A DNA stretch of 64,000 nt, from NCBI GenBank assembly GCA_965224085.1, contig CBDCYI010000004.1, forward strand, positions 992,001 to 1,056,000. The letters are read 5' to 3'. Both the position numbers and the translations under genes were made by a program. This DNA is from Candidatus Marinacidobacterales bacterium (GTDB taxonomy: Bacteria; Acidobacteriota; Vicinamibacteria; Marinacidobacterales; SMYC01). Shown here one piece after another: positions 5,236-10,954 of the stretch. Each line of letters opens with the position of its first letter. The stretch's first letter is position 1. Below the pieces are notes generated by a model. The model was not told the origin of the DNA. It did not search any database and was given only the letters and a program-made list of their open reading frames with translations.

Positions 5236-5240
5236 GCTAG

Positions 5241-7243
5241 CCCATGTTTACCCTTTATGGGCACCCTAACGCTCGTAAGTGACTGAATTCAAAGGAACGG
5301 GGGTTGAATTTTGCCCAAAACGTAGAGACAGATATTGTGCTTTGAGCGCCATTAATACGTTGTAATCGTGGACAATGATATGTAGTATGCGTGAGGACAG
5401 GTTATGTTCTTCCGCATCGTTCGGGCCGCAGGCGGCAAAGGGGTTCAACATGAGTATGTCCGCCTGGTCGAGTCGTATCGGGAGCACGGCAAGCCGAAGC
5501 AACGCGTAGTGTGCAACTTGGGGCGCAAGGATCTCCTAGTTGCCAATCTCGACTCCCTCAATCGGTTGCTTGGGGCCGGTGAACCGGCCGACACCGAGCG
5601 AGCAGCCGAGCAGATCGCGGGGGCAGACGCGTGGGATTGGGGTCCGATGGTGGTGACGGCGACGCTGTGGCGCGAGCTCGGACTGGAGCAGATTCTCGAC
5701 CGGCTCGGAGGCCGCGGCAAGCGCGACGGAGTGGCGCTAAGCGAGCGAGCTTTGGTGCTGGTCGCCAACCGGCTATGTGCTCCGTCAAGCGAGCACGGTC
5801 TGGCGCGCTGGCTCGAGACCGACTTCGTCTGCGACCGGCAGGGGCGGCGGTGGGTGCCGCAGTGGCGCGATGATGGGGAGCGGCGAGCGAGTCGCTCCCC
5901 GCGGGTTCGCGTGGAGTTTTGCCAACTCAAGCAATGGTACCGAACGCTCGACCAGCTGCATGCCCGCAAAGAACAGATCGAGAAAGAGCTGTTTTTGCGC
6001 TTGCGGGATCTGTTTTCGCTTGAGGTTGACATGGTGTTTTACGACCTGACGTCGACGTACTTCGAAGGTCAAGGCCCTCCGGGGCTCGGCGCCCACGGCT
6101 ACAGTCGCGACCGCAGACCGCGTAACCGGCAAGTGCTTGTCGGTCTGGTGATGGTGGACGGTTGGCCGATCGCCCACCATGTTTTCGCCGGCAACTGGCG
6201 TGACGCGAAAACGGTGCCGCAGGTGCTCAACGATCTCAACGAACGATTCGGTTTGCACCGCGTGGTTTTTGTCGGCGACCGAGGGATGGTAACGAGCGAC
6301 AGCCTGGCGGTGGTGCGCTCGCGCAAGCAGGGCTATCTCGTCGGGCTGCAAAGACGACGGCGCGAGGAGGTCTATCGTTACATCGAGCGCGCCAGCGGAG
6401 AGTGGATCGACTGCCCTGGTGGCATCACGGTGAGCGAAAAAGCCGAGCCACCTAAGACTCGTGTGCAAGAAGTCCGCTCCGAGCAGTCTGGCGTGCGCAT
6501 CTTCGTCGTTCACAGCGACGAAAGGCTCGCCTACGAGCGCGGGCAGAGGCTGCGGGCCATGGGACGTGCCCGTGCGGCATTCGAGGCCCTCGAGCGCCGC
6601 GTGCGCGAGGGACGATTGAAAGCCCCCGAGAAAATCGGTGCCGCCGCCGCGCGCATACAGGCACGCCACCACGGTCACCGTTACTACGACTGGGAGTACA
6701 AAAACGCTCGCTTCCGCTTCTTCGAGCACCCGGTCAACCTCAAGCGCGAGCAAGCCTACGAGGGTAAGTACGTTATTCAAACCGAGGAGCAAAACCTCTC
6801 TCCGGTCGACGCCGTGCGCCTTTACAAGGACCTAAACGAGGTCGAGCGAGCCTTCTCATGCCTTAAGGATGTCATTGAGATGCGTCCCGTTTACCACCAG
6901 ACCGATGAGCGTGTGGGGGCACATCTTTTCGTAGCTACGCTGGCCTTCCTTGTGCATCGGGCTCTTGAGAAAAAGCTCAAGGTCGCCGAACTCGACCTGT
7001 CCGCAACCGAGGCACTACAAGCGCTACGCTCGGTCCGGCTCGTCGACTTACAGCTGGGTTCTGGGCGGACCAAGCGCGTCGTCACGCGCGGCACCGCTCG
7101 CGCCAACTCGATCCTGACTGCACTCGGAATCGTTGAACGCGACCCGCCAGCCTTCTCCGAGGAGGTGCTGTCAGCGTAGAGACAAACCGCGGATCTCAGT
7201 CCTTTGTTTATGATGACTTAGAGACCTAAAAGGGAAACATGGG
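5241..7243 (+). mobile_element. IS1634-family insertion sequence
   Basis: Terminal inverted repeats CCCATGTTTACCCTTT (from 5241) and reverse complement CCCATGTTTCCCTTTT (ending 7243). CTAG on both flanks (5237-5240, 7244-7247) fits a target duplication. Confidence 0.9.
5404..7179 (+). CDS. IS1634-family DDE transposase
   Basis: Y.RLVESYR..GKPKQR N-terminus; FYDLTSTYFEG, GYSRD, VFVGDRGM, EVERAFS.LK, RPVYH. Confidence 0.92.
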   Translation: MFFRIVRAAGGKGVQHEYVRLVESYREHGKPKQRVVCNLGRKDLLVANLDSLNRLLGAGEPADTERAAEQIAGADAWDWGPMVVTATLWRELGLEQILDRLGGRGKRDGVALSERALVLVANRLCAPSSEHGLARWLETDFVCDRQGRRWVPQWRDDGERRASRSPRVRVEFCQLKQWYRTLDQLHARKEQIEKELFLRLRDLFSLEVDMVFYDLTSTYFEGQGPPGLGAHGYSRDRRPRNRQVLVGLVMVDGWPIAHHVFAGNWRDAKTVPQVLNDLNERFGLHRVVFVGDRGMVTSDSLAVVRSRKQGYLVGLQRRRREEVYRYIERASGEWIDCPGGITVSEKAEPPKTRVQEVRSEQSGVRIFVVHSDERLAYERGQRLRAMGRARAAFEALERRVREGRLKAPEKIGAAAARIQARHHGHRYYDWEYKNARFRFFEHPVNLKREQAYEGKYVIQTEEQNLSPVDAVRLYKDLNEVERAFSCLKDVIEMRPVYHQTDERVGAHLFVATLAFLVHRALEKKLKVAELDLSATEALQALRSVRLVDLQLGSGRTKRVVTRGTARANSILTALGIVERDPPAFSEEVLSA

Positions 7244-7329
7244 CTAGCAGCTTACTTATCTGGACTCCTCAATCAACACCTTTCTCAAAAAAGTCTTCCT
7301 CAGAGCTGCTCGTCCAAATCGGTGACGAG

Positions 7330-7520
7330 TGGGTCAGACTGCAAACATATCTACGGCCTCAGTGAGGAGCGTCTTGGGTGCTCCGGGCCATGACGGAAAA
7401 TCCGCGCGCGAGGAGCCAATCACTTTGAGCGACCTCTGAGGGCCAGTGTTGCTATCGGCTTGACCCCGCGCCGGTCCGACCGGTACGCCATCAGTTGGAT
7501 GGGTATCGTCGCAGCCTCTG
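7330..7520 (-). ncRNA. Putative bridge RNA / seekRNA of the IS1111-type element
   Basis: Located downstream of the recombinase gene. Two stem-enclosed internal loops whose strands resemble the target junction (7419-7431) and the donor ends (7346-7353, 7390-7396). Boundaries approximate. Confidence 0.7.
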
Positions 7521-7556
7521 TTGGAAGGGAAGAAGGAAAACACGAAAGTGGAGCCT

Positions 7557-8591
7557 CTATGCGGCCGCGGGCACCGACTGGAATTCACTCTCGCGGGTGG
7601 AGACGGCCCAGACTATCCGGGCGAGTTTGTTGGCGACAGCAATCGCGGCTTTGTTGTGTCCCCGCGAGCGGTGGACCTTCCGCGCCCAGGCGCGGAGCTT
7701 GTCGGGCGGGCTCTTGCTGACGTTGGCCGCTCGGAGCACGGCGCGTCCGCCCTGCGTGAGGAGCGTACGGAGGTAGGAGTCGCCACGCTTGGTGATGCGC
7801 CCGAGGCGGCGAATGTCACCACTGGAGTTCTCTTTGGGAACGAGGCCGAGGTAACTCGAGAAGCGGCGTCCCGATGGGAAGCGGCGCAGATCCCCAACGA
7901 AGCCGACGATGGCGGTCGCGGTCAGAAGTCCGATGCCGGGAATGGTGAGAAGTCGTTGCACCTCAGGAAGCTGCTTGGCGAGCGCCTTGAGCTCGTGCTC
8001 GATGCCAGCGCACTTGTCCTTGAGCTCTCGAATCTCGGAGCACGCATCACGCAGGTGCGGACGGAGCACGTCGGGCAAATCAGAATCAGCGTCTTCGACG
8101 AGCTCGGAGATGGCGGGCACGACGAAGTGAGCGCCCTTGGGGATGAAGAGTCCGAGCTCGCGCAGGATCCCGCGTACGGCATTGATGCGTGCGGTCCGTG
8201 TGGAGAGCCATCCTGAGCGTAGGCGATGGAGCGCGGCGAGGGTGTGCTGGCGCACGGACTTGATGGGCACCGAAAGAATCTCCTCGTTCCGGTAAGCCTC
8301 GAGCAAAGCTTTGGTGTCCGCGCGGTCGTTCTTGCTCCCGCGTCGATACGGCCTTACGAGGTGAGGTGGGAGCAGGACGACGTCGTGTCCCAACCGTCGC
8401 AACGTCCTTGCCCAAAAGTGAGCCGAGCCGCAGGCTTCGAGAAGCACGGTGGCAGCGCTCTGTTTCGCAAAAAACGACACCAACTTGGGTCGACTCACAC
8501 GGAGTTGCTTGGACACTTTCCCCGCTTCGCGCGAGATGGCAATCTCGAAGACGTTCTTTGCAAGATCCACAGCGATCGTCGTATCTTTCAT
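7557..8591 (-). CDS. IS110-family DEDD recombinase/transposase
   Basis: IAVDLAK, LLEACG, KNDRAD (RuvC-like DEDD); IPGIG, YLGLVPKENSSG, ITKRGDSYLR, AVANKLAR. GGAG RBS before ATG 8591. Confidence 0.95.
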   Translation of the reverse strand: MKDTTIAVDLAKNVFEIAISREAGKVSKQLRVSRPKLVSFFAKQSAATVLLEACGSAHFWARTLRRLGHDVVLLPPHLVRPYRRGSKNDRADTKALLEAYRNEEILSVPIKSVRQHTLAALHRLRSGWLSTRTARINAVRGILRELGLFIPKGAHFVVPAISELVEDADSDLPDVLRPHLRDACSEIRELKDKCAGIEHELKALAKQLPEVQRLLTIPGIGLLTATAIVGFVGDLRRFPSGRRFSSYLGLVPKENSSGDIRRLGRITKRGDSYLRTLLTQGGRAVLRAANVSKSPPDKLRAWARKVHRSRGHNKAAIAVANKLARIVWAVSTRESEFQSVPAAA

Positions 8592-8648
8592 TCGGACTCC
8601 TCCTTTTTCGATGCGTTCTTTCGACTGACTTTGGCACATCGATGCCGT

Positions 8649-9050
8649 CTATGTCAGCGGAGGAGTCCATCCCATCACTTGAAGCGGCTCTACTTTGACG
8701 CTCTTGTAGCGAAAAAGCGTCACTTTCCCCGCCGGAAGCCCATGCGGCTTCCTCACATCCTTGACCCGGGCCACGTGCACGGCCACCTTCCCCGCGTGCT
8801 TGGCCTTCGAATAGCGGGCTGCGAGCGCAGCCGCAAAACGAAGCGTATCCCGCGGAAGCGTGTCGAGTCCGTCAGGGTTCCGGATCACCACGTGTGAGCC
8901 GGACTCGCCCGCAACATGCATCCAAAAATCTTTTTGCGCCGCGATCTTGAAAGTCAGGACGTCGTTGTCCGAAGCGGTTCTCCCAACGAGGATTTCCATC
9001 CCGTCGGGCGAGTCAAAGCTCCGCGCAACGTCTTCTACGCCCTTGGCCAT
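8649..9050 (-). CDS. NFACT RNA-binding domain (DUF814) protein; last codons replaced by IS110 end
   Basis: ILVGRTASDNDVLTFK...DFWMHV...GSHVV...AALAARYSK...V.KP.G...GKV. Confidence 0.85.
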   Translation of the reverse strand: MAKGVEDVARSFDSPDGMEILVGRTASDNDVLTFKIAAQKDFWMHVAGESGSHVVIRNPDGLDTLPRDTLRFAAALAARYSKAKHAGKVAVHVARVKDVRKPHGLPAGKVTLFRYKSVKVEPLQVMGWTPPLT

Positions 9051-9230
9051 CGGCCTAATCATGCCGGTAGGCGCACCGCTCCGACAGTCGTCCGCTCTCG
9101 TGCTGGTGGATGGCAACGTTGAAAGGGGGACATGTAGGACAGTCCCCGGTTCTTTTGCGCCGGAGGAATCTTTGTCGCGGTCATTGCGCCCGCCCGGATC
9201 GCTACCGCCCGTCCTCGACTGGCAACGGGA

Positions 9231-10954
9231 CTATTCGTCCGCTTCCTTGACGATGGTGACGGTCAGCGGCGATTTGAGCTGAACATAGAGCTCGGTGCCT
9301 GCGGCGAGGACGACCTCTTCACCTTTGGTCGCCATCACCGCGGCGCCACCGGCGGAGCCGCCGACCGCGCCGCCTATCGCTGCGCCTTTCTTTCCGCCCA
9401 AGAGTCCTCCGACAAAGGCTCCTATCCCCGCCGCACCGCCGAGTTTTGCCGCGTCTTTCTTTCTCGTCGTGCGAGCTTTTTGATGGTGCGGCTCGGACTC
9501 GATCGCGAGCGTCTGGCCGTCCGCGGTGACGATCCGATCGAATTCGAGAGTGAGCTCACCGGTGCCGGAGACCTTGCCGGCTTTCGCCGCACGGGCAACG
9601 TGGCCTTCGATACGGCTTCCCGAGCCGATCGCCTCGTAACCTTCGATGATGATGGGGCTCTTCAAAGTTGCCGAAAAGTCGTCTCCGGCCGCAGCCGTCT
9701 CCGACGTGAGCGCGGCGTCGAGCTCGACCGCGGCCGCGGTGCCGGCTGGAACGGTAATGTTGAGCTTCGCGTCCGCGCCGATGAGCCGCCCGAAAAATCC
9801 CACCTCTTCCACTTCGACGAGAGATGTGCCCGGAGCCGCGGAAACGTCGGAATCGGGTGGGGCATCGCTGCGCGAACCGCTGACGCTCCACAACAGGACG
9901 ACCGCGACTAGAGCGAGCGAGGCAACGGCAACGACCGGAAGGGACCGCCTGCTCGTCGAAAGCTCGGCCGCGCGTATCGTTGCGGGGGCGCTTGCGGGAC
10001 TGGGCTTCGGCGCGGAAATGGAGTGCGCGACGCCCATCGTCCCAGGTGCGGCGGCCACGGTAGGCGGTGCCGCATCGTGGCTCGGTGAGCGCAAAGCGTC
10101 GATGAGCTCTGCCCCGCTCGCGTACCTTTGAGCTCGGTCTTTGGCGAGCGCGCGTTTCAGCACCGGTTCCGCGCTCTCGGGAAGGCCGAGGCTCGAATGC
10201 TCGATCGGCGGCGGATCCTCGTTGACGATTTTGAGCAGAATGGCGGTTATTTGATCACCATGGAAAGGCCGGTGCCCGTCAGACACTCATAGGCAACGCA
10301 CGCCAAGGAGAACAAATCCGATCGGCCGTCCACTTCCTTCCCCATGGCTTGCTCGGGTGACATGTAGTTCGGCGTCCCGAGTATCGTACCGGTCGCGGTG
10401 ATCTGTCCCGATGACTCGGCTTTGGCGATGCCGAAATCCATCACTTTGACATGCCCGGACGATTCGACCATGAGGTTGGCGGGTTTGACGTCGCGATGAA
10501 CGACCTTGTTGGCGTGCGCATGGTCGAGCGCGCTTGCCGCTTGAGTGAGGATGTTCAGCGTCTCGTCGAGGCTCAGACGGCCTTTTTGCCGCAGGAGCTC
10601 GGAAAGGGTTTGGCCTTCCACCATCTCCATCACGATGAAGCTCGAATCCAAGGATTCGACGATGTCGTGCGTTGTCACGATGTTGGGGTGGCGGAGGTGC
10701 GCCGCGACCTGAGCTTCGCGAACGAAACGCTTCTTGACGTCCTCGAGCTGCTTGCCATCGGCGAAAGCGTCGAGACGTATACGCTTGATCGCGACCCTTC
10801 GCCCGAGCGTCGTGTCGTTCGCCTCGTAAACTTCCCCCATGGCGCCCGCACCGAGCTTTTTGACGATCTCGTAGCGGCTGCCAAGAACTTCGACGAGCGC
10901 GTCGCGCCCGCCGCTCGAAACCCCATCCTGATCGTTCTGGTTCGACGTGGTCAT
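9231..10954 (-). CDS. Ser/Thr protein kinase with TM and C-terminal TrbI/VirB10-like glycine-zipper domain; split by a frameshift near 10275
   Basis: LGAGAMGEVY, VAIK, HRDVKPAN, DFGIAK, GTPNYMSPE, SDLFS in 10247-10954. The kinase C-lobe continues (HRPFHGD...RYASG) in 9231-10286. The shift lies in a GGG run. Confidence 0.85.

Follow-up and report, generated by a model that had tools for sequence, protein, structure and literature searches.

A predicted guide RNA of the seekRNA/bridge RNA type in an IS1111-type insertion sequence of an uncultured acidobacterium

Introduction

The RNA class, the mechanism and the subfamily scaffold that are the subject of this study are already published or predicted; the class is that of the seekRNA or bridge RNA, first described in 2024. 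In the IS1111 family, seekRNAs have been shown for the IS1111-attC group and predicted for ISPa25, and the pair ISEc11 and ISXne4 represents a natural re-direction of the IS1111 seekRNA (Siddiquee 2024, PMC11187229). In the IS1111 seekRNA, the segment that is complementary to the top strand of the target precedes, on the 5' side, the one for the bottom strand, with overlapping matches in the target; the IS1111 transposases share the motif GL-P----S(t)G (Siddiquee 2024, PMC11187229). The inverted repeats of IS1111 elements are given a length of 7-17 in Durrant 2024 (PMC11208160), where donor-binding nucleotides of many IS1111 orthologues are placed within a multi-loop.

The locus described here lies in the window, that is, the whole stretch of 64,000 nucleotides that was analysed. 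Its transposase is 47% identical to that of the ISPa25 family and 43% to that of ISPa21. It resembles the IS1111-attC group (ISKpn4, ISPst6, ISPa25, ISPa21) in that our RNA model matches the 3' non-coding regions of ISPa25 and ISPa21, and it has in common with this group the subterminal inverted repeats, terminal extensions of 7 and 3 nt, insertion without target duplication, and a right-flank guide (T) that is located 5' of a left-flank guide (B) with overlap. Unlike the members of the attC group, however, the element resides in an uncultured acidobacterium, its target is not attC-like, it is known here from its sequence alone, and its T segment reads TGTTGCTA at the cut, not ...TGTTAGGC a few bases away.

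Comparison with the IS621 bridge RNA (Durrant 2024, PMC11208160; Hiraizumi 2026, PMC13626964) gives a similar picture of likeness and difference. Both have separate pairs of guides for the target and, as predicted here, for the donor, each half-site being read on one strand, and both have a DEDD plus serine recombinase (C-terminal E 6.7e-8). In contrast to IS621, the RNA of the window is located 3' of the gene, the order of its guides is reversed, the inverted repeats are long, and the candidate donor guides lie on either side of a hairpin next to a multi-helix junction instead of being located in a simple internal loop. The element of the window is also without a clear shared core dinucleotide duplicated at both junctions.

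In this study, we found that the minus strand from 7556 to 7257 is very probably the right non-coding arm of an active-looking IS1111-type element and encodes a guide RNA of about 160 nt of the seekRNA/bridge RNA type.

Methods

Homologous loci were collected by a protein-guided search, which gave 60 loci from genomes, with transposase identities from 99% down to 35%, and 80 loci from metagenomes, with identities from 61% to 48%. The covariance model R1 was built from 15 homologs, and its structure was written by hand from the alignment. Dinucleotide shuffles of the 300-nt non-coding region served as chance controls for single motifs. The ends of the element were fixed by 11 left and 19 right ends that were found with short probes within the window's genome, and further by unoccupied target sites and an empty orthologous site in four genomes of the same genus.

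Results

Ends and gene of the insertion sequence

The features of the locus are listed in Table 1; a slash in a sequence marks the insertion point or a junction. The first-pass annotation had let the element end at 7254, which has to be corrected to 7257. It had also offered two circle junctions, and CCAGATA-TGATGGG is the one that fits the ends derived from empty sites.

Table 1. Positions of the features of the insertion sequence, its predicted guide RNA and its flanks within the window
Feature	Position	Strand	Remarks
Whole IS1111-type insertion sequence	7257..8677	minus	1,421 bp, TGATGGG...CCAGATA
Left target half-site of this copy (CGCTTCAAG)	8678..8686	minus	3' end of NFACT-R domain gene (ORF 9116-8649)
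Left terminal extension TGATGGG(A)	8670..8677	minus	Opening two bases, TG, are kept by the element at the left junction
Left subterminal inverted repeat TGGACTCCTC	8660..8669	minus	Inverted repeat with 7270-7261
Transposase/recombinase gene	7557..8591	minus	344 aa plus stop; ATG at 8591
Structured guide RNA, long seekRNA/bridge RNA form (predicted)	7332..7494	minus	163 nt; sole R1 match in the window
Helix P0, 5' strand CUGAUGG	7488..7494	minus	Pairs with 7396-7390; same sense as left end
Target-loop closing stem, 5' strand A-GCCGAU	7454..7460	minus	Pairs with 7420-7414; holds the conserved G-U pair
T guide AGCAACAC(U)	7445..7453	minus	Complementary to top strand, right half-site (AG/TGTTGCT)
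Hairpin within target-binding loop, GGCC-CUCAGA-GGUC	7431..7444	minus	4/4 pairs changed on both sides
B guide CUCAAAGUG	7421..7429	minus	Same sense as left half-site plus first two bases right of the cut
T' CCGUCAU, 3' strand of P0, candidate left-end guide	7390..7396	minus	Pairs with A/TGATGG, one G-T wobble
Hairpin P3 (GGCC...GGCC, inner GGAGC/GCUCC) between T' and B'	7355..7389	minus	
B' AGAUAUG, predicted donor guide	7346..7352	minus	Copy of the right end's last five bases plus TG
Right subterminal inverted repeat GAGGAGTCCA, then terminal GATA (7260-7257)	7261..7270	minus	
Right target half-site of this copy (AGTAAGCTG)	7248..7256	minus	Includes the host gene's original stop TAA, 7254-7252

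The subterminal inverted repeats, (A)TGGACTCCTC and GAGGAGTCCA(G), are 10-11 bp long, which is the short end of the published IS1111 range of 11-13. The terminal extensions are asymmetric, with 7 nt on the left (TGATGGG) and 3 nt on the right (ATA), the arrangement published for the IS1111 family. Of 65 homologs, 53 have a left end that begins with TG. Consensus junctions and empty sites indicate that insertion is site- and orientation-specific and occurs without target duplication.

A ribosome-binding site, GGAGGAG, lies upstream of the start codon of the transposase gene. Pfam detected DEDD_Tnp_IS110 (PF01548) at residues 7-145 with an E-value of 3.7e-11 and Transposase_20 (PF02371) in the C-terminal domain with an E-value of 9.7e-26, and the latter domain can be aligned with the recombinases ISCro4 and IS621, whose structures are solved (E about 5e-8). 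In the alignment of eight homologs, which leaves out two loci whose translation met stop codons, D9, E52 and D92 are invariant; one homolog has N at the position of D89, the fourth acidic residue. The protein contains the motif GLVPKENSSG, and S or T precedes the invariant G258 in the homologs. The DEDD/IS110 transposase gene looks intact, as the first reading of the sequence had proposed.

The window's genome contains eight other near-full copies of the element with 98.5-100% identity, as well as many fragments. There are 17 copies of the guide RNA in it, 11 of which have the identical score. Across the phylum the family is patchy, being found in 4 of 150 other sampled genomes.

At several loci of the window's genome, which we call G000 (C5:1163413-1163743, C4:1232216-1232926, C9:514575-515897 and C9:653254-653818), fragments of the element that start internally lie behind a full copy, and the terminal 46 nt or so of the right end form tandem arrays there. 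The junctions read CCAGATA/TG... and are found at internal pseudo-sites with a partial resemblance to the target, which suggests that the element targets itself or recombines aberrantly.

A conserved structured RNA downstream of the gene

The non-coding region 3' of the transposase gene extends over 300 nt from the stop codon to the right end, and the homologous non-coding regions share a common scaffold with variable inserts. R1 matched the RNA of the window with 146.7 bits (E 9.5e-34). It matched 94 places in 92 of the 100 sources that have a homologous transposase, always downstream of the gene and on its strand; of the eight sources that gave no match, six are contigs whose sequence stops within about 100 nt of the gene, and the other two contain truncated genes. 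R1 also matched the non-coding regions of known elements, namely ISPa25 (86.6 bits), ISPa21 (79.3 bits) and a Klebsiella plasmid element (80.4 bits).

The pairing was evaluated over 92 distinct aligned rows. Paired cells amounted to 91.7% as compared with 80.8% after shuffling, and 22 of the 33 pairs have changed on both sides. The number of compensated cells was 284, as compared with 68 after shuffling and 25-51 with the partners slid, although the shuffles overstate the significance because the rows were aligned by fitting to the model and come from related homologs. Helix P0 is paired in 91.3% of cells, with changes on both sides in four of its seven pairs. The outer helix of P3 is paired in 99.4%, with two of four pairs changed on both sides; its inner helix was seen by eye. 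One G-U pair is kept in 87 of 91 rows and would become a C-A mismatch if the other strand were read, so only the strand with the sense of the transposase fits.

In the fold that we propose, P0 would enclose a small hairpin and a long stem, the latter being capped by the target-binding loop, and P0 would be followed on its 3' side by hairpin P3 and then by a single-stranded tail. The minimum-free-energy fold of the window RNA as a single sequence was no better than those of shuffles (z -1.5 and -1.6); therefore, the weight of evidence rests on the comparison of homologs. A scan of 6500-9500 with Rfam 15 gave three matches at chance level, none of them in 7257-7556.

The matches of R1 to the homologs and to ISPa25 and ISPa21 and the covariation of the helices bear out the first-pass annotation, which had recognized an IS1111-type guide RNA here and had named a covariance-model alignment with IS1111 non-coding regions as a check. 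The motifs on which it was founded are found on the minus strand where it had placed them: GCCGAT (7459-7454) with ATTGGC (7420-7415), the hairpin GGCCCTCAGAGGTC (7444-7431), CGCTCAAAGTGAT (7431-7419), CCGTCAT (7396-7390) and TAGATATG (7353-7346). The conserved region might instead be a protein-coding extension or a structure at the DNA level, since an open frame of 84 aa (ORF 7588-7334) overlaps the guide-RNA region. However, gaps of a single base occur between homologs throughout the region, the variation preserves base pairs and not codons, the G-U pair described above would be mispaired on the opposite strand, and in published work on the related ISKpn4, ISEc11 and ISPa11 the non-coding region yields a transposase-bound RNA. 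We consider it extremely improbable that the region is anything other than an RNA gene.

In one homologous locus (L079 2071-3411), the IS1111-type gene and its guide RNA are separated by foreign DNA of about 1.3 kb that contains a transposase-like frame.

Predicted guides for the target

The first loop of the first-pass annotation is the target-binding loop: its 5' segment is complementary to the right flank and its 3' segment is identical to the left flank. Guide/target covariation, which had been named as a check, was found for both segments. T matched its cognate right flank with 6.68/9 and non-cognate flanks with 4.82 (n=65 distinct elements; 0/5000 permutations). B matched its cognate left flank with 3.98/8 as compared with 2.58 when no gap was allowed, and with 5.43/8 as compared with 3.79 when a bulge of 1-2 nt was allowed (n=60 and 0/5000 permutations in each case). 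In the window, B repeats TCAAG/TG with one extra A, and such a bulge is seen in many family members.

Single motifs were also compared with chance. The exact 10-mer TAGCAACACT, which is the complement of the consensus target AGTGTTGCTA, was found in 0/5000 dinucleotide shuffles of the 300-nt region. The reported match of CGCTCAAAGTGAT to the left junction CGCTTCAAGTGAT (8686-8674) is indeed 11/13, and a match of at least 11/13 was obtained in 10/2000 shuffles. The RNA of the window also follows the published order, T being 5' of B and the target matches overlapping.

A sister element, L032 (1501-2900), has a transposase that is 95% identical, and its T and B guides are different (AACAAUCG and UUUGCAGCG, respectively). 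Its insertion site, CTGCTCCAG/TGATTGTTATCC, also differs and agrees with its own guides. Guides and flanks have therefore been swapped together, a natural re-direction such as ISEc11 and ISXne4 were reported to show. As in that pair, the scaffold was kept while the guides were swapped with the target; the window type, however, belongs to a different subfamily, and the swap was observed inside one group of genomes.

Another arrangement was seen in the metagenome contig L126, where a second stand-alone target-binding loop (1484-1548) is located downstream of a complete RNA. T of this second loop matches the actual right flank at 7/9, and that of the first loop at 5/9.

Segments that may read the ends of the element

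B' agreed with the last five bases of the right end at 4.83/5 as compared with 4.12 (n=71; 0/5000 permutations). The agreeing types were AGATA (41), ATATA (18), ATACC (3), ATACA (3) and AGACA (1), and 6 of the 71 were mismatched. The heptamer AGATATG, that is, the right end plus TG, was found in 11/2000 dinucleotide shuffles. From this agreement, B' is probably a donor guide. T' matched the left end at 6.25/9 as compared with 5.84 in permutations, a weak signal (n=64; 0/5000 permutations). The central base of T' tracks its RNA partner (G-C in 51, C-G in 35) while the left end keeps G. Because the link to the left end is small and T' is a strand of the covarying helix P0, T' is regarded as a candidate guide only. 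The first-pass annotation had assigned both segments of this second loop to the ends of the element; the assignment of AGAUAUG to the right end stands, with clear covariation, and that of CCGUCAU is qualified, since this segment is complementary to the left end, covaries with it weakly and is also a strand of P0. An alternative register of T' on the second GATGG of the left end was judged by eye to be no better.

It is plausible, though rather unlikely in our judgement, that the RNA guides the choice of target only and that the protein recognizes the ends through the subterminal inverted repeats. B' would then be a second protein-binding DNA copy of the right terminus, and T' simply a strand of P0. 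The pairing of T' with the upstream strand, with its compensatory changes, and the weak covariation with the left end are consistent with this idea. Because B' has the same sense as the right end, a repeat at the DNA level would covary identically. The account of the guides in Siddiquee 2024 (PMC11187229) describes target matches alone and states that the end-binding domain is not known. On the other hand, the geometry of T'-hairpin-B' is the same as that of T-hairpin-B, and the two extra bases of B', CG or UG, are also those of B. In L112 and L117, whose left ends start with GG, T' reads CC while its RNA partner does not. The arrangement of T' and B', the candidate and the probable donor guide, respectively, fits the donor-binding nucleotides that Durrant et al. 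placed within the multi-loop.

B' ends with CG in 85 of 88 homologs, and, as described above, the left end mostly begins with TG. This implies a mismatch in donor pairing in most relatives, which is absent in the window. The window RNA is one of three in which B' ends with UG and would match the joined ends fully. A shared core of 2 nt that is duplicated at both junctions, as in IS621, was considered as the simplest description and was rejected, because the left junction reads TG in most relatives whereas the right one keeps the bases of the target (AG here).

One reading of this difference is that P0 normally holds T' paired to a mimic of the left end that lies upstream, and that the donor-side guides differ in the first bases that they read across the joined ends, TG in T', as on the left end, and CG in B', as on the usual right junction. 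We offer it as a speculation with little chance of being right. If it were true, donor recognition would be gated by the opening of P0, and B' would be tuned to the integrated right junction, the substrate of excision, or to a heteroduplex circle, and not to a simple duplex circle junction. Such gating by P0 would be a regulatory layer that has not been described for seekRNAs or bridge RNAs.

The preferred target

In the window's genome, the consensus of the preferred target is CCATCAAG/TGTTGCTAC, which lies within a repeat; the target predicted earlier from the guides, CTCAAAGTGTT, is close to it. Most junctions in the window's genome and two related genomes read GGTGCTTCCGCCATCAAG/IS/TGTTGCTACGCC, and unoccupied copies of the target read CCATCAAGTGTTG. 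Therefore, the element is TGATGGG...CCAGATA and is inserted before TG without duplication. Five of the 48 motif-like sites in the window's genome are occupied. The preferred site is located 17-18 nt inside the sharp end of the repeat, which is about 90-140 bp long.

IS4321 and IS5075, which are members of IS1111, are said in work by Partridge and Hall from 2003 to target the terminal repeats of Tn21-family transposons. The element of the window is similar to them in that its preferred site lies inward of the end of another repeated element by a short, fixed distance, but no transposon is delimited around the target repeat here.

The target repeat in G000 (e.g. L097 2380-2516) has the sharp end GTGCTTCCGCC... 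and forms a diverged family of at least three sub-types. In L098 it adjoins a truncated IS256-type transposase frame. We considered the conserved ATGGCGGAAGCACC beside the target as the start of a gene family, and rejected this because the open frames that follow it are related neither in length nor in sequence. When the repeat was examined as a known RNA or group II element, the sole Rfam hit was a group II intron domain at another position of one locus, and a Pfam search of its neighbours for a TnpB-type or group II element found no related gene adjoining it. A group II intron, in L099 1518-2735 on the minus strand (G000 C4:1823517-1824734), has domains V-VI (RF00029, 53.2 bits) and carries a reverse-transcriptase frame of 375 aa.

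The right flank of the integron attC site carries the consensus GTTRRRY. This motif lies within 20 nt of the insertion in 32 of 63 distinct relatives. No GTTRRRY was found within 20 nt in the window-type right flank, TGTTGCTAC, and the same applies to L047. The element of the window is retargeted away from the attC-like sites that many relatives occupy.

The off-consensus insertion of the window copy

The copy in the window is inserted within the last codons of a gene in which Pfam detected NFACT-R_1. The intact gene in four genomes of the same genus ends with ...CCGCTTCAAGAGTGA or a close variant, and the relatives' end is ...CTTCAAGAGTGA; therefore, the site used by this copy is CTTCAAG/AGTAAGCTG. 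The site had been read as CTTCAAGTAAG, which is corrected here to CTTCAAG/AGTAAG, and the TG in the previously given 'CAAGTGATGG' belongs to the element. The left junction of the copy reads TG, which is borne by the element, and the right junction retains the AG of the target.

The left half-site of this copy agrees with guide B at 6/8, whereas the right half-site agrees with the expected TGTTGCTAT at 2/9. The T score of the copy against its own right flank is 4/9, the lowest class among the 65 elements. Since the left half-site matches and the right one does not, mismatch-tolerant targeting, which the first reading had proposed, is supported for this copy. A second, unrelated insertion sequence is located nine bases to the right. 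Those nine bases are all ancestral, so the mismatch of the right flank is independent of which element arrived first.

The guide-RNA gene may be genuine and the window copy nevertheless a dead end that undergoes no further excision from its off-consensus site; we consider the chances of this to be even. Excision of IS1111-type elements needs flanks that match the guides, which is why such a copy could not excise. The poor fit of AGTAAGCTG to the expected half-site, the low T score and the presence of another insertion sequence at a distance of 9 nt are in line with a dead end. However, the gene and the RNA of this copy are identical in score to those of other copies, so both could still be supplied in trans, and excision in the family may tolerate some mismatch.

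The second insertion sequence (5237-7247, plus strand) encodes a DDE_Tnp_1 transposase of 591 aa and has the terminal repeats CTAGCCCATGTTT.... The genome contains 19 full-length copies of it with over 99.6% identity, and an obvious target duplication was not seen. Also in the window, at 9231-10954 on the minus strand, two adjacent frames appear, by eye from their translations, to be a split or frameshifted serine/threonine protein kinase, the kinase-like N-terminal frame being 10954-10247 and the C-terminal frame 10286-9231.

Search for traces of transcription

The RNA-library runs that were found by the search contained 0.19-0.31 of the sampled words. In four RNA libraries, short contigs of low depth covered parts of the gene and 7265-7383, and they may be due to DNA carry-over. 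In the contigs of these four libraries, 7404-7505 was uncovered, and there were no RNA ends and no joint across the ends of the element. A promoter scan of 7200-8750 gave no sigma-70-like site and one irrelevant terminator-like site. It is possible that the guide RNA of this copy is produced by read-through from the co-oriented host gene.

Discussion

The following mechanism is proposed for the element. On the target side, T (AGCAACAC) would pair with the top strand rightward of the insertion point and B (CUCAAAGUG) with the bottom strand leftward of it, T and B overlapping by two to three bases at the cut. On the donor side, B' (AGAUAUG) could pair with the bottom strand of the right end of the element plus TG, and T' (CCGUCAU) with the top strand of the left end once the ends are joined in the circle. 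The RNA-bound DEDD/serine recombinase would bring the circle junction CCAGATA/TGATGGG to the target CCATCAAG/TGTTGCTAC, where strand exchange between the circle junction and the target would take place without target duplication.

What was observed in this study is that the RNA is homologous to the non-coding regions of ISPa25 and ISPa21, that its helices covary, and that T, B and B' each covary with the DNA that they would read; the consensus of the target and the deviating site of the window copy are likewise observed. The transcription and processing of the RNA, its binding by the protein and the chemistry are inferred from the work on ISEc11, ISKpn4, ISPa11 and IS621, and would be expected here by analogy. 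The suggestion that the element is a programmable recombinase ortholog is fair as that of a candidate.

In conclusion, the RNA of the window is a real and well-supported but ordinary example of a seekRNA or bridge RNA, and the picture of how IS1111 elements work is left unchanged by it. This study adds an apparently active, predicted RNA-guided recombinase from an uncultured acidobacterium, for which the natural target consensus has been defined and all four guide segments have been mapped, T' as a candidate. About 90 relatives show natural swaps of the guides, including the 95%-identical sister with different guides. The findings may be useful for the choice of orthologs and for guide-design rules, namely the bulge of 1-2 nt in the left-target guide, the preference for YG at the cut and the tolerance of a mismatched right half-site.
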